Shown piece by piece: positions 9,619 through 58,066 of a DNA stretch of 64,000 nucleotides (position 1 is the first letter of the stretch; the number at the start of each line of letters is the position of its first letter). The stretch comes from Minisyncoccia bacterium. GTDB taxonomy: Bacteria; Patescibacteriota; Minisyncoccia; JACQLN01. The position numbers and the translations under genes are program-made. The notes beneath the pieces were generated by a model. That model did not search any database. It saw nothing but the letters and a program-made list of their open reading frames with translations, and had not been told where the DNA came from. The stretch covers positions 645-64,644 of the forward strand of contig JBASTM010000008.1 of NCBI GenBank assembly GCA_049274895.1, in the 5' to 3' direction.

Positions 9619-10275
9619 TTACAATTCTTTTCTCTCCTTTGCGTTTTTGACCACCAATTCGGCTAGTCGAAGTGTGGTTTCAAACGTCTCTTCTTTTCCC
9701 GTAATTTCCTTTCTCGCCTCAACCTCTGCACGATCTTGGGCAATAATTTCTTCTACAGTCATACCTTCTTTGATTTTTGGGACGATCCGCTCAAAATATC
9801 TTTTAACTCTCCCGTTACTAAGAACCGCTTGTATTAATTCCAGTTTTTCTGCTTCTGAAATATCTTTTTCCATTCGTTCACCATACGCACGTTTTGCCGA
9901 TTCTGTAACTCCAACAAAATCAGATACCGAGCTATCTACCTCTGGATTTTCGGGGGCAGATAATTCCTTTTCCGCGTTTTTATTATCAAAAATTGCAACT
10001 AGCTCTTTTTCATCGGCAACACCAGCCCGAGAGAACACAAGAGCATCATATTTTGGGTCATCAGAAAATCCAGTTTCTATTAAAGAGGCGTTTTTTCTTT
10101 TTTCCTCTGCCTGCTCTGATGAAATTCTACCTGCTTTTTCCATCGCAGAAAGCTCGTCATTCAATGCCCCAAGAAAAATGGCTCTTGGGTCTTCTACAAT
10201 TTTCTCTTTTTCTTCCGGCTTTGGAGTTTCCTCCTGCGGTGGAACTGGATTATTAAAAGGATTTTCTATGCTCAT
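9619..10275 (-). CDS. Hypothetical acidic protein
   Basis: 218-aa ORF with normal composition, preceded by the conserved 130-nt tRNA-distal module; the overlapping + strand ORF 9605-10543 is S-rich and likely spurious. Confidence 0.5.
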   Translation of the reverse strand: MSIENPFNNPVPPQEETPKPEEKEKIVEDPRAIFLGALNDELSAMEKAGRISSEQAEEKRKNASLIETGFSDDPKYDALVFSRAGVADEKELVAIFDNKNAEKELSAPENPEVDSSVSDFVGVTESAKRAYGERMEKDISEAEKLELIQAVLSNGRVKRYFERIVPKIKEGMTVEEIIAQDRAEVEARKEITGKEETFETTLRLAELVVKNAKERKEL

Positions 10276-10299
10276 ATATTTTTATTGGTTAATTATTAA

Positions 10300-10438
10300 A
10301 AAGAATTTTATGATTTTGATTAAAAATTTTTCTTCCCCCAAAATGCGAAATCGTGAATTCGTTTTTACCCCCAAAATTGAATACCAATTAGTCGCCGAGC
10401 GAAGCGAGGCGAACCAAAACTCTTTGACTTTTCCTGTC
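10300..10438 (-). repeat. Conserved ~130-nt module between tRNA-Arg and the downstream gene (copy 1 of 2)
   Basis: About 90% identical to 59340-59468 located after tRNA-Leu(GAG); contains GTCGCCGAGCGAAGCGAGGCGAACC and GGGGGAAGAAAAATTTTTAATC just before the ATG of the downstream gene. Confidence 0.7.
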
Positions 10439-10514
10439 TGGTGTCCCTGGCAGGAATTGAACCTGCGATCTCTTCCTCCGCAGGGAAGCGCTCTATCCGC
10501 TGAGCTACAGGGAC
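10439..10514 (-). tRNA. tRNA-Arg (anticodon GCG) with encoded CCA
   Basis: Minus-strand reading GTCCCTG…D-arm GCTCAGCGGATAGAGC, anticodon stem-loop CTTCC-CTGCGGA-GGAAG, T-arm GCAGG-TTCAATT-CCTGC and ACCA. Confidence 0.7.
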
Positions 10515-10522
10515 AAAATTGT

Positions 10523-11218
10523 TTATGTAATTTTGTCTTTTAATTGTCTGGCTATTTCTAAGAGTTCTTTTCTAATGTCACTATCCAAGTAAGATATGAA
10601 ACAGATTCCCATAAAATTTTTTCTAAACCTTCTCGTCTTACTGCGTTTCTTAAAATATATTTTTCCGAATTGATTCTGTGGAACCTCCAGTAGATTTGAC
10701 CAGAATTTTTTTGAGGAGGAGGTATTGTGGTAATGATGCAAATGCAATCTTATTCTAAATTTATCGTTGTTTATTTTATAACACCTTCTTAATAACGATA
10801 TGTAAAACAGTGCTAAATTTGGATCTGTATTAACAAATTTTAGTCCGCTTACCCCTTTATACTTTGCACCCTCGGCCCAATATAGCATTACCAGCAAAGA
10901 CTTCCAAAACCCAGGGTCTCTCAAGGGATATCTAGATATTTCAGGAGTAATTTTGTCTCTTAGAATTTTTTCCCGCTTTTTCCGTTCCGCTATCTTTACC
11001 GTTTTTGCTAGTGTCCTTATTCTAGCAAGGTGTAAAAGTTGGGCCTTTCTATCAAATACTCCAGGATACTTTTCCCCCAGCCAGCCCGATAGGGTACTTT
11101 TAGGTATATCTAATTTGTCGGTTATATCTTTGTAAGATTTGCCCTTTGAGCGGAGTTTTTCTGCTTTTCTCCTGGTATCCACACCGTAAACCTTTCCTCG
11201 CATAGTAGTTACGAACAA
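10523..11218 (-). CDS. HTH-domain protein with a possible degenerate LAGLIDADG-like nuclease domain
   Basis: N-terminal HTH (KSYKDITDKLDIPKSTLSGWL); central LLVMLYWAEGAKYKG…NTDPNLALFYISLL resembles a degenerate LAGLIDADG helix; ends 9 nt from tRNA-Arg. Confidence 0.3.
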   Translation of the reverse strand: MFVTTMRGKVYGVDTRRKAEKLRSKGKSYKDITDKLDIPKSTLSGWLGEKYPGVFDRKAQLLHLARIRTLAKTVKIAERKKREKILRDKITPEISRYPLRDPGFWKSLLVMLYWAEGAKYKGVSGLKFVNTDPNLALFYISLLRRCYKINNDKFRIRLHLHHYHNTSSSKKFWSNLLEVPQNQFGKIYFKKRSKTRRFRKNFMGICFISYLDSDIRKELLEIARQLKDKIT

Positions 11219-11265
11219 GATGATTATTTACTAAATCTTACCATCTGTAGTTCGTATACGCAAGG

Positions 11266-11721
11266 TTAAAATTTTAAGAACCTAGCTAAGGCGTCTATGG
11301 TTGATTCGCTGTGTTCCTTTTCGGGAACCGTTGGCGAAATCATATTCCGAACTGCTTCGGAGTCTATGCCGGCCAGCGGCACTTCCAGATGCAGATTAAG
11401 TATGTTTTTACCCTCCAAGCTTAAAACATTACCACTCTCGCGTTCAAAAATCCAGAACGATTTGAAGTTGTTTAAGGCGTGTTCCTTGTCGCCGATTTTT
11501 AGGGTTTCCGAATCTAAAACAAAAATATACTCGCGGGGTTCTTTTAAGGCGTAGATGTTTAAGACTCCGGCGGCCAGAATTATAAAAACAGCCAAAAGAT
11601 AGCTTTTCAAAATTACGGCCACCGCCACCACAGCCGCGGCCAGAATCCAAAGCGAAACAAACCAGTTGGTCTGCCGTTCGGGTTGTTCAAATTCGTACGC
11701 CTGCCATTCCAGCTTATCCAT
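11266..11721 (-). CDS. Hypothetical membrane-anchored protein
   Basis: 151 aa with an N-terminal pair of TM helices and a soluble C-terminal domain. Confidence 0.45.
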   Translation of the reverse strand: MDKLEWQAYEFEQPERQTNWFVSLWILAAAVVAVAVILKSYLLAVFIILAAGVLNIYALKEPREYIFVLDSETLKIGDKEHALNNFKSFWIFERESGNVLSLEGKNILNLHLEVPLAGIDSEAVRNMISPTVPEKEHSESTIDALARFLKF

Positions 11722-11887
11722 GGTTTTTCGAGGATTTTATAGGGTTTTTTGTCTACTTATTGTAGGTTTATTATAGATATTGATTTTGTCCGTATTGTGT
11801 GTATACTTAACAATGTCTTTTGGTTCTACCATGAACTGAAAGGGTATTACATCCAAGGGCCACTCTCCTCGCGGAGGGTGGTTTCTT

Positions 11888-12457
11888 TTATTGCCCATCT
11901 TTTGTTCGATGCCGAAGTTCCTTACCCCAAACATCTGTCTCTAGGTTCAGTACGTCAAAATATCCATTTCCGCCCGTTCTCAATTCTTGCGAGATATTAT
12001 TTTTTGAGGAGAAAATAAAAACTTGTTTGTTTCCTTTTTTCAAATAGGTTACAAGTGCTAGAAAATCCGAATCTCCTGTAAATAAAACGGCGGTGTCATA
12101 TTTTGATGCATGATGGATTGCGTCGATTGTTATTTCTACATCCATATTTCCTTTCTCTTGAATAGATTCGCCGTGTTCGTCCGCGATAGAGATCCTTTTT
12201 AGTTCTTTTTTCCGTACTATAAATTTAAGTCCTTTTTTTAGGTAGGTCAAAAATTTATGCTTTCCATCAAGACTGTATTTTCTCGTACCATCAGCGGGAT
12301 ATGCCGTGTAATAAAATACTTGAATTGAAGTAGCGTTTAATTTGTTTTTAATATAGCTGATCAATTTTTCGTAATCTAAAAACTTCCCTTTGGCTTTTTG
12401 TGCGGCCCATAGATTGGAAGCATCAATAAAAACATAGATTTTCTTACTCCGGAACAT
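11888..12457 (-). CDS. NYN-domain (LabA/PIN-like) putative RNase
   Basis: KIYVFIDASNLW…VLFTGDSDFLALV is characteristic of NYN/DUF88; the start is set at MFRSKK because the upstream extension overlaps tRNA-flank repeats. Confidence 0.6.
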   Translation of the reverse strand: MFRSKKIYVFIDASNLWAAQKAKGKFLDYEKLISYIKNKLNATSIQVFYYTAYPADGTRKYSLDGKHKFLTYLKKGLKFIVRKKELKRISIADEHGESIQEKGNMDVEITIDAIHHASKYDTAVLFTGDSDFLALVTYLKKGNKQVFIFSSKNNISQELRTGGNGYFDVLNLETDVWGKELRHRTKDGQ

Positions 12458-12505
12458 ATTTTTTAGGTTCGTAACTTGGATACAGTCAATATGTCTATAA
12501 ACTTG

Positions 12506-12632
12506 GCGGCGGGGGTGAGATTCCTTTCGCTCCGACTCAAGTCGGGTCGCTGCGCGCACTCGCTCCCTTCTCATCTCACTCGCACGCCAAGACTTTGGCG
12601 TGCTCCCCCATCCTCGCTCACTTTGTTCGCTG
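12506..12632 (-). repeat. Structured insert downstream of tRNA-Ser(TGA) ending in an 18-nt direct copy of the tRNA 3' end
   Basis: GCGGCGGGGGTGAGATTC at 12632-12649 is repeated at 12506-12523; the spacer shares ACAAAGTGAGC / GAGATGAGAAGGG / GGAGCGAAAG motifs with the tRNA-Glu flank. Confidence 0.6.
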
Positions 12633-12719
12633 CGGCGGGGGTGAGATTCGAACTCACGAGGGGCTTTCACCCCTAACAGTTTTCAGGACTGTCCTATTCA
12701 ACCGCTCTAGCACCCCGCC
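12633..12719 (-). tRNA. tRNA-Ser (anticodon TGA), type II
   Basis: GGCGGGG acceptor, anticodon stem-loop ACAGT-CCTGAAA-ACTGT, long variable arm AGGGGTGAAAGCCCCTC and T-arm GTGAG-TTCGAAT-CTCAC. Confidence 0.8.
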
Positions 12720-12833
12720 TTAATTTCTCGGCAAAGCCTCGGTCAAAAATATGAGCTATCGCGTTTGCCCGGGTTGCTTTTGCAACCCGTCTAACGTTAT
12801 CCCATAACGTTAGACCCGCTCTAGCACCCCGCC
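12720..12833 (-). repeat. Upstream flank of tRNA-Ser(TGA): conserved tRNA promoter motif plus insert ending in a 17-nt copy of the tRNA 5' end
   Basis: TTTTTGACCGAGGCTTTGCCGAGAAA also precedes tRNA-Leu(GAG); CGCTCTAGCACCCCGCC at 12703-12719 is repeated at 12817-12833; hairpins GTCTAACGTTATgggATAACGTTAGAC and CGGGTTGCaaaaGCAACCCG. Confidence 0.6.
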
Positions 12834-12900
12834 GTTGGTTGAAAATTATCACAAAAGCTGGATTTATTCAATATAATCTGGTAATTTATAAAAAGATAAA

Positions 12901-13025
12901 GGAGGCGTGGCCGAGTGGGCTGGGGGCTGTGGGACAGCGCCCAGCGGGTTGCAAAAGCAACCCGGGAGTCCGAGGCCACACATATTTTTGATTGAGTCCC
13001 GCCTTTGGGCGGGACGAGAAAATAC
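12901..13025 (+). repeat. Upstream flank of tRNA-Ser(GCT) beginning with an 18-nt direct copy of the tRNA 5' end
   Basis: GGAGGCGTGGCCGAGTGG at 12901-12918 and 13026-13043; the spacer contains the same CGGGTTGCAAAAGCAACCCG hairpin as the tRNA-Ser(TGA) upstream insert, in opposite orientation. Confidence 0.6.
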
Positions 13026-13113
13026 GGAGGCGTGGCCGAGTGGCTTAAGGCAGCAGTTTGCTAAACTGCGGGGGTCTAAAAAGCCCCACGAAGGTTCGAA
13101 TCCTTCCGCCTCC
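13026..13113 (+). tRNA. tRNA-Ser (anticodon GCT), type II
   Basis: Acceptor GGAGGCG/CGCCTCC, anticodon stem-loop GCAGT-TTGCTAA-ACTGC, long variable arm and T-arm GAAGG-TTCGAAT-CCTTC. Confidence 0.8.
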
Positions 13114-13164
13114 GCATTGACAACTTTTTATCGGCATGACCCGAGTGCCTATAAAAAAGTTGAA

Positions 13165-13198
13165 ACAAAAAAGAGTGGTTAATACCGCTCTTTTTTGT
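13165..13198. terminator. Bidirectional terminator hairpin
   Basis: AAAAAGAGTGGTtaatACCGCTCTTTTTT between tRNA-Ser (+) and the recombinase fragment (-). Confidence 0.5.
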
Positions 13199-13203
13199 TT
13201 TCT

Positions 13204-14112
13204 CTACTCTTCAATCATCGTTATTTTTTTATCTTTGTAGTTTAGTCTGCTTCGCAGATTTGCGAGCAGTTCACGCTTGTCTGATACGCTACCTTCTTTC
13301 AGTAGATATCTAGCATATTGGCGGATGTTCACATCATTTTCTTCGACCAGTGCTTTTCCGATCTGACCATTCACGATCTTCTGTAACTTATTGAACCGCC
13401 TAATTTCATCCTCGAGTTTCTGTCTCATGCCAAGCTCATTGATATTTACCTTATCCATAATTTTTAGAAACTCATCAATAAGTTCTTCCTCACGAATATA
13501 TTTGTTTTTGCAGTTGCGATCTCTTGCCCGACTGCATCTGTAGTAGATGTAGTGTGCCGACGTGCCATCTTTGAGTGGTTTCCATTTTTCCTCAGCTGAT
13601 ATGCCGGACTGGCAGTACCCGCAGGTGAATAATTTTGTGAAGGCGAATTCTTTATTCTCCCTGACTATTTGATCGCGCTTCAGTTGTGCTTGAGCTTTTT
13701 CAAACAACTCTTGGGTGATAAGCGGTTGATGTTTACCTTGATACCAATTACCACCCTTTCTTGGGTATTCAAACAGCCCGTAATAGAAGGGGTTATCAAG
13801 TATGCGATAAACCCCGGAGAGTGTGAGTGGCTTATTACCTCTGGTATGGAAATTCAGTTCAAACTTGAGCCAGTTGTAAATCTTTCTGCCCGAGTAATGT
13901 TCATATGCGACCTTCTCGAAAATTTTCTTTACAGTCGGCGCTCGGAGCGAATCAATGGCAATCTGACATTTCTTATCCATGAGTTTCTGATTGAGATAGC
14001 CAAGTGGTGCCACTCCCGGCCATAAACCCATCTCCACCCTTGTTCGCAATCCTCTTTTAACATTAATGCCTCGATTGTCGTTTTCGAGCTTCGCTTGTGA
14101 GCCTAAAATCAT
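13204..14112 (-). pseudogene. Large serine recombinase fragment lacking the N-terminal resolvase catalytic domain
   Basis: Begins at the alphaE-helix-like QAKLENDNRGINVKRGL, then the recombinase domain (GLWPGVAPLGY) and zinc ribbon (CGYCQ…YYRCSRARDRNC) with a coiled-coil tail; there is no room upstream for the Ser-nucleophile domain because the Nudix gene abuts it. Confidence 0.55.
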
Positions 14113-14157
14113 CAGTAAAAATTTTTCATTAGGATTGTTAGAGAATTTTTGTTACCT

Positions 14158-14595
14158 TTATAGTTTTTTTACTGCATTTTTATAACCTTCTCTCATATTC
14201 AGATCATCAATTTCAGATATCGGAACCCATTTGTATTCAATATGTTCGTCGCTATGATTGATTTCTTTTTCGTTGGAAAAACATTCGTATACTAAAACTA
14301 TAAATTGATATTCCATATCCTCTTTTTGCGAAGTAAAAGTCCAAACATCAACTATCCTGCCAACTTCTAAGTCATTCCATCCAAGTTCCTCTCTAAACTC
14401 TCTTTTTAGGGTTTCTGCCGGATTTTCACCAAAATCAATTTTACCTCCTGGGAGTTCCCAAACGCCCTTATGATCTTTAACGAAAAGAATTTCATCACCT
14501 CTTTTTAATATTCCTTTTACAGTTGTTTTTTGTGTTTTTGAGTTCATAAAATTATATTTGACATAGTAACCCGCTTTTGTTATTTTGTAAACCAT
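14158..14595 (-). CDS. Nudix hydrolase
   Basis: Nudix box GGKIDFGENPAETLKREFREELG. Confidence 0.7.
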   Translation of the reverse strand: MVYKITKAGYYVKYNFMNSKTQKTTVKGILKRGDEILFVKDHKGVWELPGGKIDFGENPAETLKREFREELGWNDLEVGRIVDVWTFTSQKEDMEYQFIVLVYECFSNEKEINHSDEHIEYKWVPISEIDDLNMREGYKNAVKKL

Positions 14596-20258: not shown

Positions 20259-20822
20259 ATGAAATTCTATTTTAACCGGGCTTTAAGAATTTTGCTGGCC
20301 ACCAATGCCGCCGTTATTTTTGCCGCGGCCATGTTGACGCCGATCTACGCTATTTACGTGGAAAAAATCGGCGGCGATATTCTGGACGCCGGTTTATCCA
20401 GCGGAGTTTTTGCTTTGGTGAGCGGCATGGTGGTTTTAGTTGCCGGGCGTTACAGCGACAAAATGAAAGACAGCGAGCTTTTGGTGATCGCCGGTTATAT
20501 TGTTTTGGGTTTGGGTTTTTTCCTTTATAATTTTGTGGATACGGTGATGTCGTTATTTATGGTTCAGGCGTTGATCGGTTTGGGTTACGCTTCCACGGCG
20601 CCGGCCTACGATGCCCTTTACACCAAACACGTGGATGGCCACCGTTCGGGCTGGCAATGGAGCGGCTGGGAAGCCATGGCCTATTTCACCACGGCGGCTG
20701 GTTCGGTGGCCGGCGGGTTCGTGGTCTCATGGTTTGGCTTTAGCGCTCTTTTTGTGACTATGTCGGTCTTATGTCTGCTTAGCGCCCTATATATGTATCT
20801 CTTGCCCCGCCGGGTGCTGTAA
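20259..20822 (+). CDS. Half-size MFS-like membrane protein
   Basis: About 6 TM helices with an MFS-like GRYSDK loop. Confidence 0.4.
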   Translation: MKFYFNRALRILLATNAAVIFAAAMLTPIYAIYVEKIGGDILDAGLSSGVFALVSGMVVLVAGRYSDKMKDSELLVIAGYIVLGLGFFLYNFVDTVMSLFMVQALIGLGYASTAPAYDALYTKHVDGHRSGWQWSGWEAMAYFTTAAGSVAGGFVVSWFGFSALFVTMSVLCLLSALYMYLLPRRVL

Positions 20823-20851: not shown

Positions 20852-21046
20852 ATGAATACGGTTACAACTAAAGAAAAGATACTATTCAAAAACGGTAAAC
20901 CCGATGCCGTGATTTTGGATATTGGCCGCTATGAAAAGTTACTGGAAGTCGCGGAGGAGAAAGAAGATTTGGCGGAACTAAAGCGCATCAAAAAATCCAA
21001 AACCTCGTTTAAGGAACTCAAGAATTATCTAAAAAAAAGTGAATAG
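20852..21046 (+). CDS. Type II antitoxin (Phd/YefM-like)
   Basis: 64-aa protein overlapping the downstream RelE/ParE toxin by 8 nt. Confidence 0.5.
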   Translation: MNTVTTKEKILFKNGKPDAVILDIGRYEKLLEVAEEKEDLAELKRIKKSKTSFKELKNYLKKSE

Positions 21047-21290
21047 GATTTTACTGGAACGCCAAGCCGAAAGGGACTTGGACGCGCTCGATTTGTCCTT
21101 GAAGAAGAGGATAGTCGGGCGCGTTTTATTGCTAGCTAAAAACCCGAGACCGCACGGTTCAAAAAAATTGACAGGGTCAGCCAGCGCTTGGCGGATCAGG
21201 ATAGGCGATTGGAGGGTGATTTACGAGATTGATGATAGGTTGAGAGAGGTTAAAATTTACCGTATCAAACACCGGAGCAAGGCATACTAA
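21039..21290 (+). CDS. RelE/ParE-family toxin
   Basis: …WRIRIGDWRVIYEIDDRLREVKIYRIKHRSKAY is the C-terminal signature of RelE/ParE. Confidence 0.7.
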   Translation: MNRILLERQAERDLDALDLSLKKRIVGRVLLLAKNPRPHGSKKLTGSASAWRIRIGDWRVIYEIDDRLREVKIYRIKHRSKAY

Positions 21291-21340: not shown

Positions 21341-23464
21341 ATGCCCGCTTCAATTATAAATTGCTCTGATCTTAAAGAAGCCGATGTGGTTTTGTTGGGC
21401 GCCAATTACGACGTCACTTCGTCTTTTGGCAAAGGGGCGAGCCATGGCCCGGCGGCCATTATTGATTGCTTGCATACCCAAGTTGAATTTTTAGACCGCT
21501 ACACCGGCCTGACGCCGCGGGATCACTTGAAGATCGCTTACCAAGATTTGGGTGATCTAAATTCGCTTAGTCCCGAGGCAATGGTGGACAGAATCAAAAA
21601 CGCTTACGGCGAGCATTTGGGTTTTGGGCGTTTCAACATTCTTTTAGGCGGCGAGCATTCCGTGACCAGCGGGGCCTTAAAAGCCATCGGCCAGCGCCAT
21701 TTTCCGTCCGAAATAACCGTGGTGCAACTGGACGCCCATTTTGATTTGCGCGACACCGACGAGGATTTTAACGACCAGCCGTGGGGCAGGTATTCTCATG
21801 CCACAGTGATGAGGCGGGCCTTTGAACTCGGTTATAAAATAGTTTCGGTGGGCGTGCGGGCTTATTCCGGCCAAGAATACGATTTTGCCCGCGAGCGCGG
21901 CATTGCCTTTTTTGAATGGGGTAAAGGCAGGGTGCCTTCTCACCAAGAAATCTTAAAGGCCATTACCACCGACAAAGTTTATTTGACCATAGACGCGGAC
22001 GGTTTTGACCCGGTGCATCTGCCGGCCACCGGCACGCCCGTGCAGGGCGGGCTGGAATGGAATTACGCCTTAGGGCTGATAAGTGAAATTTTTAAGCATA
22101 AAAAAGTTGTCGGCGCCGATGTGGTGGAGGTTTCACCCAGGGCGGGCGATACGCTGACCGAATACGGCGCCGCCCAAATTTGCCATAATTTAATGGCCGG
22201 GCATTTAAGCGGGACCGATAAATTAAAAAATATGAATACAGAACCTGATTTTGGGCTTGACGGGAATCCGGGCCATCAAGTTGTTGGTGATGGCCAAATG
22301 GGCGCGCCGGTGATCGGCCGCAGCGTGGCAGAATGCGCTTCGTTAAAAGATATTTTTGAAAATGCCCTGCCGGCTTTCGGCGGAGCTTATCTTAAAAGAG
22401 TTTATAGTATTTTACGCCAGGCCATTTTAAACAACGTGCCTCTGGTAATAAGTATAGCCGGGCCGGTGACCGTGTCCGATCAGCACCGCGCCTGGCTGAT
22501 TCCCTTGCTGGAAACCGGCTGGGTGGCCTATTTAACTACCACCGACGCCGCCTGCTACCACGACGGCCACGACGCCTTGTATAAATCAGCCCCAGGGGAT
22601 CGCCCCATAAAAGAAGTTGATATTTTCGGCGACGACGGCGCTTACCGCGAAGCGGGAATCATACGCGTGGCCGATACCGGATTCAAAGAACAAGTTATTT
22701 TTGACCAGGACCGGATGATTTCGGCCGTGTTGCAACGTCCTGAATTCCAAAAACGCATGACCACCACCGAGCGCAATTATATGTTGGGTCGGTATTATCA
22801 AAATCAGGAAGAGGAAGTCGGTGTTCGGCCGGGGTTACTCTCCACTTGTTCGCGTTTGGGCCTGCCGGTGTTCGTGGGCGCCGCGGCCGACGGCAGCGCT
22901 TTTCTCAACTCCGTAAAACTGTGGGCCTTAAACCGTGTTTCCAACCGCCCCTATTGGTTTGACTATGATCTCCACGCCGACGTTTTTGAAAGCTGCGCTT
23001 ACCATTATTGGGGTCTTTTTGATTCCGAAGCCAAGGCCTTGGGCGCTTTGATTTTGGGCGGGGGCGTGCCCAAAAATTACAGTTTGCAGCCCGAGCCGAC
23101 GCTGTCGCAGATATTTTTGTTGCCGGGCATCCGCGGCTACGATTACGACGTCCAGATTGTATCTTCTCCGGTAACCGACGGCAGTTTATCTGGCTGTCTT
23201 CCGGCCGAGGCGGTGAGCTGGGGTAAGGTTAACCCCGAAACTTATCGCCAGCAAACCGAGAGCATGCAGGCCGATTATTCTATGGTAATGCCCTTCATCG
23301 TCAAAGCCCTGCTGGATGATCCCGCTCTTCCACGCCGGCCCCAGCTGGGTTTGTATCATCGCCGCCAGGAACTGGTTAACAAACTTTTTGACGCAGTGGC
23401 CCAGAACCAAGCGGCCATTGAAGAAACCTTAAATTATCCCCTTAAAATTGTAGCCAGTGCTTAG
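21341..23464 (+). CDS. Fusion protein: ureohydrolase (agmatinase/arginase family) N-domain plus deoxyhypusine-synthase-like C-domain
   Basis: N-terminal half GGEHSVT…DAHFDLRD…DADGFDP (Mn-binding ureohydrolase motifs); C-terminal half GGGVPKN…AEAVSWGKV (deoxyhypusine/homospermidine synthase NAD-site and catalytic-Lys motif). Confidence 0.6.
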   Translation: MPASIINCSDLKEADVVLLGANYDVTSSFGKGASHGPAAIIDCLHTQVEFLDRYTGLTPRDHLKIAYQDLGDLNSLSPEAMVDRIKNAYGEHLGFGRFNILLGGEHSVTSGALKAIGQRHFPSEITVVQLDAHFDLRDTDEDFNDQPWGRYSHATVMRRAFELGYKIVSVGVRAYSGQEYDFARERGIAFFEWGKGRVPSHQEILKAITTDKVYLTIDADGFDPVHLPATGTPVQGGLEWNYALGLISEIFKHKKVVGADVVEVSPRAGDTLTEYGAAQICHNLMAGHLSGTDKLKNMNTEPDFGLDGNPGHQVVGDGQMGAPVIGRSVAECASLKDIFENALPAFGGAYLKRVYSILRQAILNNVPLVISIAGPVTVSDQHRAWLIPLLETGWVAYLTTTDAACYHDGHDALYKSAPGDRPIKEVDIFGDDGAYREAGIIRVADTGFKEQVIFDQDRMISAVLQRPEFQKRMTTTERNYMLGRYYQNQEEEVGVRPGLLSTCSRLGLPVFVGAAADGSAFLNSVKLWALNRVSNRPYWFDYDLHADVFESCAYHYWGLFDSEAKALGALILGGGVPKNYSLQPEPTLSQIFLLPGIRGYDYDVQIVSSPVTDGSLSGCLPAEAVSWGKVNPETYRQQTESMQADYSMVMPFIVKALLDDPALPRRPQLGLYHRRQELVNKLFDAVAQNQAAIEETLNYPLKIVASA

Positions 23465-23506
23465 ACCGGGTCTAGACCTTAATGATATACTTAAAGAATA
23501 GAGAAT

Positions 23507-24343
23507 ATGCCTGAATTTTTCCAAGATTTATTCAAAAGAAAACAAGTACAAGTGGAGGATTCTGAAGATCATGAAGAAAAACCCCAACAACTGCCGGTTG
23601 TTGAGGAGCCGAGTCCATCCGAGCGTCTAAGATCACCTTTGGAAACACCAGAGGAAGGTGTGCTTGAAAGCCGTGAGAAAACAGATAGCAAACTCTTAGG
23701 CGGCGGGTGCAATACGACTGTATTTATTGAACTGAAAGATGACGGTTCGGGTATCTTTAAACCTAAAAGTGGTGAGAATGAGAATTTAAGGGAAAATATA
23801 AGAGCTGGGACATATTTTCAGCGTGAACGAGCTGCCTATCTACTAGACAAATTTTTAGGGTTTGATCTGGTTCCTCCGACTGTTGTGCGTGAGATAGATG
23901 GCGAGATTGGTAGCTTCCAGCAATTTATTCCCGATGCCCAGCCAGGACGTCGAGTTGAACATAGCGAACTTGATGAAGCTGCTATTAAGCAGCAATTAAT
24001 AAAGCTTTGGATTTTTGATTGTATTATTTTTAATTCGGACCGCCACTGGAGCAATTTTTTAGTTAAAGATAAAAAAGTTTACGCTATTGATAATGGGTTA
24101 TCGTTTGGTGATGAAATATTTTATCCTCATGACAGTTTTTTTGATGTCCCGATTCCTCCGGAAATAGTTGAGGGTATTAAGAAGTTTCTTTTGTGGAAAG
24201 AAGGCAGAAAAATATGCGAAGATTTGCTCGGAGAGCTTTTGAGCTCGGAAGAAGTTGCGGCCTGTATGAGGCGTATAGAAAGAATCGCCAGTATTATTAA
24301 ACAGCACGGCCAAGTGCCTCGGGAGTCTGAGTTGGTTTTTTGA
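23507..24343 (+). CDS. PI3K/PI4K-like atypical kinase domain protein
   Basis: Catalytic-loop-like FNSDRHWSNFLV and activation-loop-like AIDNGLSFG (the DRHxxN…IDxG pattern of PI3/PI4-kinase-family folds); Pro/Glu-rich disordered N-terminus. Confidence 0.45.
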   Translation: MPEFFQDLFKRKQVQVEDSEDHEEKPQQLPVVEEPSPSERLRSPLETPEEGVLESREKTDSKLLGGGCNTTVFIELKDDGSGIFKPKSGENENLRENIRAGTYFQRERAAYLLDKFLGFDLVPPTVVREIDGEIGSFQQFIPDAQPGRRVEHSELDEAAIKQQLIKLWIFDCIIFNSDRHWSNFLVKDKKVYAIDNGLSFGDEIFYPHDSFFDVPIPPEIVEGIKKFLLWKEGRKICEDLLGELLSSEEVAACMRRIERIASIIKQHGQVPRESELVF

Positions 24344-24606
24344 CAGCTATGAAATTTGTAGAGATATATAAAATTCAAAATGACGGTTCGCAAACTATAG
24401 CGGCAATATGCAAACTTGCCGGCGAGACGGTTGTCTGTGAGGGTGAGCCGGTGTTGATTAGCGGATTGGAGCAAGAGGGGATTTGGGATGATTCAAAAAC
24501 TCCACCGCAGAAAGTTTTTCCCAAAGACGGCCTGGCTTTTTTAGACCGGCTCCGTTTTACTTTTAAGTCCGGTTATCTTAATGCCTCCGAAGTTAAGGAG
24601 GAATAA
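24340..24606 (+). CDS. Hypothetical protein
   Basis: 88-aa ORF overlapping the kinase-like gene stop by 4 nt. Confidence 0.35.
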   Translation: MTAMKFVEIYKIQNDGSQTIAAICKLAGETVVCEGEPVLISGLEQEGIWDDSKTPPQKVFPKDGLAFLDRLRFTFKSGYLNASEVKEE

Positions 24607-24613
24607 ACCCACA

Positions 24614-24643
24614 CCCACAAAGGGTTACCCTTTGTGGGTTTAG
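24614..24643 (+). terminator. Rho-independent terminator
   Basis: Perfect palindrome CCCACAAAGGGTtACCCTTTGTGGG followed by TTTAG. Confidence 0.6.
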
Positions 24644-24852
24644 AAACCAAACGGCCATTGAAGAAACCTTAAACTATCCTCTCAAGATCATCACCCAATC
24701 CTAAAAATCTTAAAACGTATACCGAGCTAGCGGTAGCAAGCTCGGTATACAAATTATTGAACACCCGGTGTTTGATCGATAAAGTCTCTAATGTGGTGGA
24801 CGGATACAAGCATTTGATTTTCTAGCTCGTTTTTGGTATCTTTAGTTTTATT

Positions 24853-25044
24853 ATGATCACTCAAACTCGCACACGAACTGCCCATCTGCCGTTGGCGCTC
24901 CACCAGGCCGCGGAGAGTCTTAAAAAGTTGTCCAAAAATGAATTGGAAACTTTGGAATTGCTTTTAGACAAAGAAACCAGCCGAGTTATTAAGCGGAGCG
25001 TTTCTCAAGCTAAGAAAGGCCAGATGCGAGAACTTAAGCCGTGA
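24853..25044 (+). CDS. Putative antitoxin of a small TA pair
   Basis: 63-aa ORF overlapping the next ORF by 4 nt. Confidence 0.3.
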   Translation: MITQTRTRTAHLPLALHQAAESLKKLSKNELETLELLLDKETSRVIKRSVSQAKKGQMRELKP

Positions 25045-25223
25045 AAATTGGTGATCAGCTCTCCGGACCGCTAGATTGGCTCCGGAGTTTTCATTTTTCA
25101 AGCCGGATTGGGCCACACAGGATTGCTTACAGTCTTGATCCAAGAGCGAGTAAGATTGTGATTCATTATGCCGGTTATCGAGGTGGTTTCTATGAGAAAC
25201 TAAAACAGGCCCTGGATAAGTAA
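25041..25223 (+). CDS. RelE/ParE-like toxin (short)
   Basis: …HRIAYSLDPRASKIVIHYAGYRGGFYE resembles the RelE/ParE C-terminal core. Confidence 0.35.
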   Translation: MKIGDQLSGPLDWLRSFHFSSRIGPHRIAYSLDPRASKIVIHYAGYRGGFYEKLKQALDK

Positions 25224-44719: not shown

Positions 44720-44995
44720 ATGTCTTTAGTCAAAGTAAAAGAAAAACATCAGATCACTTTACCCAATGTTATTCGTGAAGGGGTTGGTTTAGCTGTGGGT
44801 GATTGGGTTGATGTCAAAATTGAAAAAGGCCGGGTTACCCTTACTCCAAAGAGTATAGTGGGCCGACATATCGCCGAGGCGCTTAAGGATATAGAAGCCG
44901 GGCGGGTTTATGGACCGTTTAGTTCGGCCCAAGAACTTATAAAATCGCTTCACAGTGGAAGAAAAAAGAAAACAGTTTTGAGAAAGAAGAAATGA
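44720..44995 (+). CDS. AbrB/MazE/SpoVT-family antitoxin
   Basis: …ITLPNVIREGVGLAVGDWVDVKIEKGRVTLTP swapped-hairpin signature. Confidence 0.55.
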   Translation: MSLVKVKEKHQITLPNVIREGVGLAVGDWVDVKIEKGRVTLTPKSIVGRHIAEALKDIEAGRVYGPFSSAQELIKSLHSGRKKKTVLRKKK

Positions 44996-45237
44996 AAGTT
45001 TTCTATACCGAGCGTTTTCGTCGGAGTTATAAAGAGGTTCCGATTGAGGTTCGACAGGCGTTTGATAAACAGGTTCTATTTCTTTTACAAAACATTAGGC
45101 ACAGTTCTCTTAAAGCTAAAAAGTATGGGGTATCAGGAGATGTTTGGCAGGCCAGGGTCAACAGATCTTGGCGTTTTTATTTTACAATTAGAGGCGATAT
45201 TTATCACATTTTAGACATCTCGCCGCATCCTAAATAA
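44992..45237 (+). CDS. RelE/ParE-superfamily toxin
   Basis: …WRFYFTIRGDIYHILDISPHP C-terminal core; 4-nt overlap with the antitoxin. Confidence 0.5.
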   Translation: MKVFYTERFRRSYKEVPIEVRQAFDKQVLFLLQNIRHSSLKAKKYGVSGDVWQARVNRSWRFYFTIRGDIYHILDISPHPK

Positions 45238-48314: not shown

Positions 48315-48719
48315 GTGGGGTCGTCCATTAAAATGAAAAAGGATTTTCAAAAATGGCATAACCAAAAACGGCATATTGAAAATGAGCGGCCGCGCGTATT
48401 TTTTAAGGAACGGGAAATTTGGTTTTGCCACCTTGGCGAAAATGTCGGTTTTGAACAAGATGGCAGGGGCGATGAATTTCTGCGCCCGATAGTGGTATTA
48501 AAAAAATTCAATAATGAAGTCCTCTGGGTAGTTCCTTTAACCAAAACCGATAAGAAAAATAAGTATTATTTTCCATTTTCTTTCAATAATGAAACAAGTG
48601 TTGCCATATTATCGCAAATACGGCTTGTTGATGCCAAGCGCTTAAAATACAAGATGGGTGATATGAAAGTTGAGTATTTTAAGGTCCTAAAGAACAAAAT
48701 CAGGCAATTTCTTGCCTGA
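48315..48719 (+). CDS. MazF/PemK-like toxin-fold protein (no obvious adjacent antitoxin)
   Basis: REIWFCHLGENVGFEQDGRGDEFLRPIVVL…VVPLTKTDKK resembles the MazF/Kid pattern. Confidence 0.4.
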   Translation: MGSSIKMKKDFQKWHNQKRHIENERPRVFFKEREIWFCHLGENVGFEQDGRGDEFLRPIVVLKKFNNEVLWVVPLTKTDKKNKYYFPFSFNNETSVAILSQIRLVDAKRLKYKMGDMKVEYFKVLKNKIRQFLA

Positions 48720-56280: not shown

Positions 56281-56994
56281 TCAAAACTCCACTCTTTGTT
56301 TGCAATCTTTAATAATGTCAAAGGCCTCCTCGGCCGTGTCCACCAGAGTGTAGATGCCGGTGTCTTCTTTATCAATGGCCAGCATTTTTTTTAATACCAC
56401 CTTATCCACCCAGTCCAAAAGCCCGGTCCAGTATTCGCGGCCGACGATAATAATGGGTATGTGAGAATTGACCTTGCGGGTTTGGATCAAGGTTACCAGT
56501 TCAAAAAATTCGTCCAGAGTGCCAAATCCGCCCGGGAAAAAAACATAGGCCCACGAGGCATAAGACAGCATCACCTTGCGGGTGAAAAAATAATGAAAGC
56601 CGAGGGCGTGTTTGACGTAGGGGTTGGTGCGCTGTTCTTGGGGCAGTTGGATGTTTAAGCCCACCGATTCGCCGCCTTTTTCAAAAGCGCCGCGGTTGCC
56701 GGCTTCCATTATGCCCGGCCCGCCGCCGGTGATTATGGTAAAACCGTTTTCGGCCAACAGCTCGGCCAGCTTTCTTGCCTCTTGGTACCAGGGGTCATTG
56801 ACCTGGAAGCGGGCCGAGCCGAAAAAGGTGACGGTTTTTTTGTAGTCAAACAAAAACTGAAAGCCCTCCACGAATTCCGACATTATCCTAAAAATGCGCC
56901 AGTGAAAGCTTTCTCTAAAATCCTTGGCGCTATCGTGTTTATGGATGGGGAGTTTGGAAGCCGGCAGGTTGAATTTGGGTTCTTGAGGAGTCAT
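56281..56994 (-). CDS. LOG-family protein (TIGR00730 Rossmann-fold nucleotide phosphoribohydrolase)
   Basis: GGGPGIMEAGNRGA and PGGFGTLDEFFE motifs. Confidence 0.75.
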   Translation of the reverse strand: MTPQEPKFNLPASKLPIHKHDSAKDFRESFHWRIFRIMSEFVEGFQFLFDYKKTVTFFGSARFQVNDPWYQEARKLAELLAENGFTIITGGGPGIMEAGNRGAFEKGGESVGLNIQLPQEQRTNPYVKHALGFHYFFTRKVMLSYASWAYVFFPGGFGTLDEFFELVTLIQTRKVNSHIPIIIVGREYWTGLLDWVDKVVLKKMLAIDKEDTGIYTLVDTAEEAFDIIKDCKQRVEF

Positions 56995-57582: not shown

Positions 57583-57873
57583 CTAGGGACTCGGGTGTAG
57601 ATATCGATAAGTGTTAGAAGTTCTGCGTTCTACCCAGAAAACATGTATTAATCTTTTTGAAATGTGTATTTCGTAAAAAATCCTATACGAGCCCACACGC
57701 CTCCGCCAAGTATTTTCTTCGCCTTTAATTTTATTAGTATCACCCACAAAAGGATCCATTATTAATAATTCAATGATGTCGGTTATCTTTTCAGAGTATT
57801 CTTTGGGGAATTTTTTGATTTGTCTACGAACTTTATCGTCCACTTTCAATTCCCAATTTTCGTTTGAGCTCAT
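57583..57873 (-). CDS. RelE/ParE-family toxin
   Basis: …TWRRRVGSYRIFYEIHISKRLIHVFWVERR core. Confidence 0.65.
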   Translation of the reverse strand: MSSNENWELKVDDKVRRQIKKFPKEYSEKITDIIELLIMDPFVGDTNKIKGEENTWRRRVGSYRIFYEIHISKRLIHVFWVERRTSNTYRYLHPSP

Positions 57874-58066
57874 GTATTGTTAAAAATTTGCCCCGGGCTA
57901 AATTCTTTCGTGCTTCTTTGAGAGCTTTTTTTTGAGCGGGAGTCAATTCAACTTCTCGGGTTTTTTTTAGACGAAAACTTAAAAACTCCTCGTATTCCTT
58001 GCGGGGAATTATAACAAGGTCGCCTTTTTCCACCATATTTTTAGGAATGGTTACGGAGTTTATCAT
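57833..58066 (-). CDS. AbrB/SpoVT-like antitoxin
   Basis: …TIPKNMVEKGDLVIIPRKEYEEF…; overlaps the toxin. Confidence 0.5.
   Translation of the reverse strand: MINSVTIPKNMVEKGDLVIIPRKEYEEFLSFRLKKTREVELTPAQKKALKEARKNLARGKFLTIHELKRKLGIESGR

Follow-up and report, generated by a model that had tools for sequence, protein, structure and literature searches.

We analysed a 64,000-nt stretch of DNA from a Minisyncoccia bacterium (contig JBASTM010000008.1, positions 645 to 64,644), hereafter called the window. It carries a gene whose product joins two enzyme domains in one chain: an N-terminal ureohydrolase of the agmatinase type and a C-terminal domain of the deoxyhypusine synthase (DHS) fold that resembles the bacterial enzyme SpeY, also called CdmS. 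The open reading frame (ORF) runs through 707 codons in one frame without any internal stop (Table 1). Pfam Arginase (PF00491) spans residues 14-285 (E 7.6e-57; 193 bits, cut-off 22), and Pfam DS (PF01916) spans residues 345-656 (E 1.1e-33). A first-pass annotation, made from the letters alone, had described the gene as a single-polypeptide fusion of an agmatinase-family enzyme and a DHS-like domain. Our results bear this out: the ORF is uninterrupted, both Pfam families are matched, and all the motifs quoted at that time are in place, namely GGEHSVT (residues 103-109), DAHFDLRD (131-138) and DADGFDP (218-224) in the N-terminal half and GGGVPKN (573-579) and AEAVSWGKV (622-630) in the C-terminal half. 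An AlphaFold model of the fusion, based on an alignment of 72 sequences (mean predicted local distance difference test score, pLDDT, 81; predicted template modelling score 0.54), has two well-folded domains and a disordered linker with pLDDT values below 50 at residues 300-323. The expected folds are confirmed for both halves, the arginase fold for the N-terminal and the DS fold for the C-terminal one.

Table 1. Features of the fusion gene and its immediate surroundings (positions refer to the window; TM, transmembrane segments)
Feature	Position	Strand	Basis or remarks
Half-size transporter of the major facilitator superfamily (MFS), 187 aa, ~6 TM, upstream of the fusion	20259..20822	+	Pfam MFS_1
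Fusion ORF, 707 aa: ureohydrolase, linker, DHS-like/SpeY-like domain	21341..23464	+	ORF call, Pfam and NCBIfam domains
N-terminal Mn-ureohydrolase (agmatinase-type) domain, aa 14-285	21380..22195	+	Mn ligands H106, D131, H133, D135, D218, D220, plus E263
Linker between the domains, ~aa 291-325, differing in length and sequence, with predicted disorder	22211..22315	+	Alignment and pLDDT
C-terminal DHS-like (SpeY/CdmS-like) NAD-dependent domain, aa 329-684	22325..23392	+	Catalytic Lys629; E623, W627, D517, K578 conserved; L522, L616, N579 substituted
Functional last 19 codons (NQAAIEETLNYPLKIVASA) and stop	23405..23464	+	Last 30 nt 19/30 identical to the L004 and L019 gene ends
Inserted cassette: kinase-like gene, 88-aa ORF, terminal hairpin	23465..24644	+	Flanked by duplicated gene end
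Kinase-like gene, 278 aa	23507-24343	+	Weak PI3_PI4_kinase match
88-aa ORF overlapping the kinase-like gene	24340-24606	+	
Cassette terminal hairpin	~24617-24641	+	
Original 3' end of the fusion gene, now displaced (NQTAIEETLNYPLKIITQS), and stop	24645..24704	+	Second copy of the last 19 codons and stop
Hairpin with 12-bp stem after the displaced gene end	24717..24750	+	Homologous to the L019 hairpin

A protein identical to the product of the fusion ORF (P0001) is present at NCBI on a 65.4-kb contig, and the same sequence occurs in Logan. Its NCBI name, 'MAG: agmatinase [Minisyncoccia bacterium]', does not mention the DS half. Twelve further cluster representatives, 64-87% identical to the 707-aa protein, have the same two-domain architecture, and one fusion cluster representative is present on 16 contigs, which stem from different samples. 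In all 13 fusions the domains align end to end and the linker length varies by 0 to ~40 residues; identity among them amounts to 58-86% for the N-terminal half, 12-63% for the linker and 75-92% for the C-terminal half. It is scarcely credible, then, that we are dealing with an artefact, that is, with two adjacent genes that a faulty assembly or a frameshift error has run together, or with a fusion in which one domain is dead. We found no support for either, the only oddity being the label 'agmatinase' that omits the second half. Against an artefact speaks the recurrence of this architecture in 13 clusters, which derive from independent samples and different assemblers and have linkers that differ in length yet stay in frame; against a dead domain speak the invariant catalytic residues of both halves and the confident folding of both domains. 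Because homologs from separate samples share the two-domain architecture, a chimeric assembly is excluded, and so is the missed stop or frameshift between two genes that the first-pass annotation had named as a possible refutation. The ORF encodes a genuine single polypeptide.

The fusion has a narrow distribution. All named full-length fusions come from Patescibacteria, the Candidate Phyla Radiation (CPR), with entries under Sungbacteria, 'Patescibacteria group', Parcubacteria and Yanofskybacteria, and among 185,579 species-representative genomes only two contain a full-length fusion, both of them CPR. The class Minisyncoccia belongs to the phylum Minisyncoccota, and close homologs of the fusion protein are filed by NCBI under 'Patescibacteria group'; the host is a tiny-genome, groundwater-type CPR bacterium. 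We found no description of a natural SpeB/DUH-SpeY (agmatinase-DHS) fusion in the searchable literature, and nothing useful on homospermidine in Patescibacteria or in Acidobacteria. A paper from 2026 mentions 'fusion' only as an in silico query (PMC13625781). A tblastn comparison of the C-terminal half with 72,556 plasmids, made to find named SpeY genes, gave no match.

The N-terminal half passes the NCBIfam agmatinase equivalog TIGR01230 (204.9 bits, cut-off 174.3) and stays below the E. coli-type SpeB model NF002564 (120 vs 302 bits). SpeB of B. subtilis is a verified member of TIGR01230. Agmatinases are also the nearest solved structures, and the six ligands of the binuclear manganese centre, placed by alignment to the agmatinases 1wog and 3pzl, are invariant together with E263 in 13/13 fusions. 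By its covalent attachment to a SpeY-like domain, the N-terminal half has the genetic association with speY that is characteristic of diagmatine ureohydrolases (DUH). Its nearest stand-alone relatives (57-63% identity) include an archaeal gene as well as bacterial genes that have no DS partner nearby; a 406-aa ORF beside the stand-alone agmatinase of one locus (L015) was considered as such a partner and rejected, since it is not a DS protein.

For the C-terminal half, residues were compared with human DHS, with proteins that pass the NCBIfam model NF001980 and with the published residues of CdmS, rather than with the sequences of assayed SpeY/DUH enzymes. The length and eleven landmark residues of the human DHS sequence in this alignment agree with the published numbering. 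Lys629, invariant in 13/13 fusions, corresponds to the catalytic Lys329 of the human SWGK motif. Also kept are Trp627 (W327), Glu623 (E323), Asp517 (D238), Lys578 (K287) and D342, whereas His288 is changed to Asn579, Asp243 to Leu522, Asp316 to Leu616 and Glu136-Glu137 to Tyr-His. All DHS equivalogs are failed (TIGR00321, 74.5 vs 304 bits; NF002006, 83.4 vs 434; NF002630, 81.5 vs 364), with scores of 59-83 bits overall against cut-offs of 304-434. Thus the C-terminal half has the DS fold and the catalytic Lys in its SWGK motif and lacks the spermidine-pocket residues. Because it scores so far below the equivalog cut-offs and is devoid of the acidic and His residues of the pocket, it is, judged by its residues, not a true DHS (EC 2.5.1.46). 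Bacteria are not known to have an eIF5A or aIF5A that could serve as a substrate for DHS.

The substitutions instead point to SpeY. In CdmS of Thermus thermophilus, Phe204 and Leu286 replace Asp243 and Asp316 of DHS, while Glu293 and Lys299 are retained (PMC10981699). The fusion likewise has hydrophobic residues at both Asp sites and keeps the Glu and the catalytic Lys, and the L-7-E-6-K spacing of L616, E623 and K629, which stand alongside L522, is that of L286-E293-K299 in CdmS. The same signature, K-N-[Y/F] with Leu/Met at position 243, Leu at 316 and Tyr-His at 136-137 of DHS, is found in proteins that pass NF001980 (P0271, 537 bits; P0282, 506 bits; P0350, 457 bits). The gene for P0282, from a Woesearchaeota metagenome-assembled genome, lies directly upstream of a homolog of alanine-racemase-fold ornithine/arginine decarboxylases, a typical speY cluster. 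Among the 150 closest representatives, all aligned full-length proteins except the outlier P0358 have K-N-[Y/F], and none has the K-H-H of true DHS. Next to the pocket, the clade of the C-terminal half differs from NF001980-type proteins at several positions, among them T-D-A vs T-G-A and D-G-S vs x-G-G.

An exhaustive HMMER search of 1.84 billion cluster representatives gave only 759 related clusters. NF001980, a model named 'homospermidine biosynthesis protein', is the best NCBIfam model for the C-terminal half and covers it end to end; its scores for the full-length hits form a continuum from ~170 to 549 bits. Stand-alone homologs of the C-terminal half (~398 aa, 42-72% identity) were found at other loci of the 185,579-genome scan (L022-L098), in Bryobacterales/Terriglobia (Acidobacteriota), Planctomycetota, Myxococcota and one Saccharibacteria genome, and these relatives score 170-194 bits. 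In a rough neighbour-joining tree, rooted with human DHS as the single outgroup and without bootstrap, an NF001980-type clade is separated from a divergent sister clade, and the three fusions included fall inside the latter, beside the ~398-aa stand-alone proteins. Since the three fusions placed on this tree group together, the fusion would seem to have arisen once, in a CPR lineage. Two long DS-family hits, P0310 (645 aa) and P0380 (725 aa), were rejected as further fusions. They are SpeY genes interrupted by inteins, which in these NF001980-like proteins are inserted after about profile position 283-287; P0380 additionally has HNH and NUMOD3 matches.

The biochemistry of SpeY and its partner enzymes is known from other organisms. 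CdmS/SpeY of T. thermophilus (TTHA1570) is an agmatine-homocoupling enzyme (PMC10981699). In E. coli lacking agmatinase, each of seven SpeY enzymes from a range of phyla builds up N1,N9-bis(guanidino)homospermidine (G44G, also called diagmatine or caldomycin) from agmatine, and homospermidine is obtained from SpeY strains only with a ureohydrolase present, while human DHS, plant DHS and bacterial homospermidine synthase (HSS) make no G44G (Li et al. 2026, PMC13625781). Of the SpeB homologs that accompany SpeY, the two that were purified, from Caldilinea and Winogradskyella, hydrolyse G44G without detectable activity on agmatine, and SpeB of B. subtilis acts on G44G with ~330-fold higher efficiency than on agmatine (PMC13625781). 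A canonical agmatinase, it was argued, would starve SpeY of its substrate, and speY together with a dedicated hydrolase would constitute a horizontally transferred unit (PMC13625781).

We propose with moderate confidence that the fusion is a bifunctional homospermidine-forming enzyme of this diagmatine pathway, because it covalently joins exactly the two enzyme families of the two-step route. In the first step, the C-terminal domain with bound NAD+ would couple two molecules of agmatine to G44G via Lys629 under release of NH3. In the second step, the N-terminal domain, as a binuclear-manganese ureohydrolase, would convert G44G through G44 to sym-homospermidine and two urea. Both steps are assigned by homology, and the stoichiometry is that of the cited papers. 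The C-terminal domain would act before the N-terminal one, and putrescine would not be an intermediate, because the tested SpeY enzymes use agmatine, the ureohydrolases associated with them spare it, and the C-terminal half carries the SpeY/CdmS substitutions. Such a fusion implies a ureohydrolase that would not consume agmatine. It would hold the two activities at a 1:1 ratio via the flexible linker and thereby favour the hand-over of G44G. As DHS forms tetramers and agmatinases form trimers or hexamers, the fusion may assemble into an unusual oligomer of higher order. As far as conserved residues can tell, both catalytic centres are intact. The first-pass annotation had placed here a channelled polyamine pathway from agmatine via putrescine to homospermidine, or one through an agmatine-derived analogue. 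A homospermidine-type pathway in a reduced CPR genome agrees with our reading, and the analogue named in its hedge would be G44G; the step through putrescine is disfavoured by SpeY biochemistry and by the active-site substitutions, and channelling between the domains is something we infer.

Several observations weigh against this proposal. The C-terminal half fails both SpeY equivalogs (NF001980, 185.9 vs 450 bits; NF002699, 63.2 vs 500 bits) and belongs to the divergent sister clade of our rough, unbootstrapped, single-outgroup tree, whose members are SpeY-like by sequence. By every residue-level criterion it would work like SpeY, as a member of a divergent branch that falls outside the curated family. 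The preference of the N-terminal domain for G44G over agmatine is likewise putative, since no sequence rule separating G44G-specific from agmatine-active ureohydrolases has been published (PMC13625781). At the 78 stand-alone loci, no arginase-family gene and no alanine-racemase-fold decarboxylase lies within 7-10 kb, nor is there a conserved neighbour, the commonest neighbour family occurring at 9 of the 78. Pfam revealed no arginine decarboxylase of whatever type among the 30 scanned ORFs of the window, and a SpeD-type motif was found neither in the window nor in the first 15 loci. Since the stand-alone relatives have no polyamine neighbours, the fusion by itself carries the link of this DHS-like clade to polyamines. 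It is the only genomic evidence joining the clade to a ureohydrolase: a linked G44G hydrolase, as expected of SpeY, accompanies the C-terminal domain in the fusion and none of the 78 stand-alone members.

The domains could also act in the reverse order. The N-terminal domain would then be a true agmatinase that forms putrescine, and the C-terminal domain would condense two putrescines, or putrescine and another amine, to homospermidine. This fits the agmatinase equivalog passed by the N-terminal half, its nearest solved structures and the fact that eukaryotic DHS can form homospermidine from spermidine and putrescine (PMC13625781). However, the tested bacterial SpeY enzymes all need agmatine and give homospermidine only after ureohydrolase action, and SpeY would lose its substrate to a canonical agmatinase (PMC13625781). 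Moreover, Asp243 and Asp316, which hold the amine in DHS, are both Leu here, as in SpeY-type proteins (Phe/Leu in CdmS), and no gene of a spermidine pathway is present in the window. We therefore regard the putrescine route as unlikely. Alternatively, the clade of the C-terminal half could use another acceptor and make another product, for example by transferring a 4-guanidinobutyl group to another amine or to a macromolecule, such as a lysine of a protein, after which the ureohydrolase would trim off the guanidino group. In line with this, the clade fails the SpeY cut-offs, is unusually conserved across phyla (63-76% identity), shows no clustering with polyamine genes at the 78 loci and differs from NF001980-type proteins next to the pocket. 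The fusion gene also sits in a neighbourhood of translation genes, between tgt and tuf, and archaeal agmatinase-like genes cluster with aIF5A (PMC5178350). On the other hand, neither efp nor another candidate acceptor was found near the 98 loci or in the window, a weak negative obtained without a positive control. All pocket residues common to SpeY and CdmS are present, and the known two-step pathway is the simplest reading of a fusion with a ureohydrolase, so that we consider a different acceptor improbable. In a specific and very doubtful version, the C-terminal domain clade and the orphan ~398-aa genes could put an agmatine-derived 4-guanidinobutyl group on a protein lysine, e.g. of a translation factor, or on an envelope amine, which the ureohydrolase would then unmask. 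If true, bacteria would have their own equivalent of the agmatine-dependent deoxyhypusine route that has been proposed in haloarchaea.

If the diagmatine reading is correct, at least one CPR lineage has retained an inexpensive way to a triamine, with NAD+ and manganese as the only requirements of the two steps and without S-adenosylmethionine or pyridoxal phosphate. The covalent fusion fits the 2026 proposal that speY and a G44G hydrolase form a functional and transferable unit in which the hydrolase spares agmatine. It could serve as a 'Rosetta stone' by which a large divergent DHS-like clade, widespread in soil Acidobacteriota, Planctomycetota and Myxococcota, is connected with guanidino-amine chemistry, and the single gene could be used as a reagent for making homospermidine from agmatine. 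New here is the single-chain form of the diagmatine pathway on a divergent SpeY-like clade; the pathway itself is known and the protein was already in the databases. Current understanding is not overturned.

The agmatine required would have to come from elsewhere. No polyamine gene accompanies the fusion, and tblastn searches of all 98 loci with an alanine-racemase-fold decarboxylase gave no match apart from the query's own locus (L016). Candidate sources are an arginine decarboxylase encoded elsewhere in the genome and external uptake. A PF03641 match ('Lysine_decarbox', 'Possible lysine decarboxylase') at 56281-56994 (-) is easily misread as a polyamine decarboxylase and was rejected as such; it belongs to the LOG/SLOG family. 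The half-size MFS gene upstream of the fusion is 81% identical to one directly upstream of the fusion in a related locus (L004, 2957-3520) and was not found at other fusion loci. That its product transports polyamines or agmatine is a weak possibility. As a separate observation, a DS domain continues directly into an MFS_1 domain within P0345, a metagenomic protein.

The slot of the fusion gene is conserved, between tgt and tuf followed by the S10 ribosomal-protein operon. The Yanofskybacteria genome (L020) shows the order tgt, fusion, a 140-bp spacer and tuf. The accessory genes flanking the fusion differ between the window and its relatives and include toxin-antitoxin pairs, the reverse transcriptase of a diversity-generating retroelement (DGR) and the kinase-like gene. 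A scan for promoters and terminators gave nothing above the shuffled expectation.

The 3' end of the fusion gene was the target of an insertion. As the first-pass annotation had proposed, a kinase cassette entered here: the last 19 codons and the stop recur beyond the kinase-like gene. The first 30 nt of the two gene-end copies are identical at 28/30 positions. The last 30 nt of the displaced copy match the gene ends of two related loci (L004 and L019) at 26/30 positions and the functional end of the window at only 17/30. The blastn core between the copies comprises 35 nt (94%, E 9e-10). At L019, the intact gene is directly followed by a hairpin (GTATACCGA...TCGGTATAC) homologous to that at 24717-24750, with stem changes on both arms, and the hairpin of the window is probably the native terminator of the fusion gene. 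Because the displaced copy matches the relatives' gene ends and is followed by the same hairpin, the insertion maps to the coding 3' end. A cassette of ~1.2 kb, absent from all related loci, by these alignments recombined within a core of ~30 nt, supplied a substitute tail and displaced the original end together with the terminator; an insertion purely into intergenic DNA is rejected by the duplicated gene end. The final ~10 codons of the functional gene are probably cassette-derived. The enzyme is not truncated as judged from the alignment, the replaced residues lying in an unconserved tail.

At locus L004 (5700-6640) an identical footprint surrounds cargo of an unrelated kind, namely a gene of 197 aa and a remnant of 32 codons, and the 3'-end site is therefore used recurrently. 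No recombinase is encoded within the cassette. The kinase-like gene stays just below the PI3_PI4_kinase cut-off (26.8 vs 27.1 bits), matches the SCO1664 family model TIGR03843 at 79 bits, also below cut-off, and has similarity to the PADLOC candidate defence family PDC-M03A (E 1e-5), and the L004 cargo gene (5824-6417) matches Csx3 (E 3.5e-6). The cargo is possibly of the defence type.

Some further features were noted around the fusion. In a 70%-identical relative (L001, 5390-7874), a DGR with an RVT_1 reverse transcriptase lies immediately upstream of the fusion, as also in L002, where bAvd is present, and in L003. The fusion was considered as the DGR target in these three loci and rejected, since the variable repeat falls within the upstream 205-aa gene, at its 3' end; the L001 repeat pair measures 125 nt (5887-6011 and 6347-6471, 81% identity). 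Within the window, positions 10000-14200 have a low GC content (0.40-0.43 vs ~0.47 elsewhere) and contain a serine-recombinase-like ORF of 302 aa (13204-14112, -) with Recombinase and Zn_ribbon_recom matches and apparently without the resolvase catalytic domain, as well as a NYN-domain protein and a helix-turn-helix protein. This stretch is probably a degraded integrated element. Many small toxin-antitoxin-like modules (20852-21290, 24853-25223, 44720-45237, 48315-48719 and 57583-58066), including Phd/ParE, PemK/MazF, a possible AbrB-like pair and others, are dispersed over the window, mostly where synteny with related genomes breaks off.

The closest known systems are the two-gene modules of speY and speB(DUH) from Thermus thermophilus (CdmS/TTHA1570 and SpeB), Caldilinea aerophila and Winogradskyella algicola, in which the same two enzyme families are genetically linked (PMC10981699, PMC13625781). 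The fusion shares with them the DS-fold coupling enzyme dependent on NAD and Lys, the arginase-fold ureohydrolase and the SpeY-type substitutions. It differs in being one polypeptide, in which a flexible linker follows the N-terminal hydrolase, in having a coupling domain from a divergent clade below the NCBIfam cut-offs, in the absence of a linked arginine decarboxylase and in its reduced CPR host. Compared to eukaryotic and archaeal DHS (human, PDB 6XXJ/9IEX; archaeal, 8PUT), the pocket residues are replaced and the equivalog scores are far lower. With bacterial HSS (PDB 4TVB), the fusion would have in common the end product sym-homospermidine and the catalytic use of NAD+, but the folds are non-homologous and the substrate of HSS is putrescine instead of agmatine. 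No HSS-type match to the fusion was obtained in the Pfam, NCBIfam or PDB searches, and the HSS and SpeY pathways have been described as mutually exclusive (PMC13625781). Polyamine enzymes have been joined before in different pairs. A Ca. Diapherotrites archaeon carries a fused aguA-aguB next to speY (PMC10407285), which likewise links consecutive polyamine enzymes, and Fusobacterium nucleatum has an ornithine decarboxylase/arginase fusion in one chain (PDB 8D27). Several of the natural polyamine-enzyme fusions come from CPR/DPANN-type genomes.

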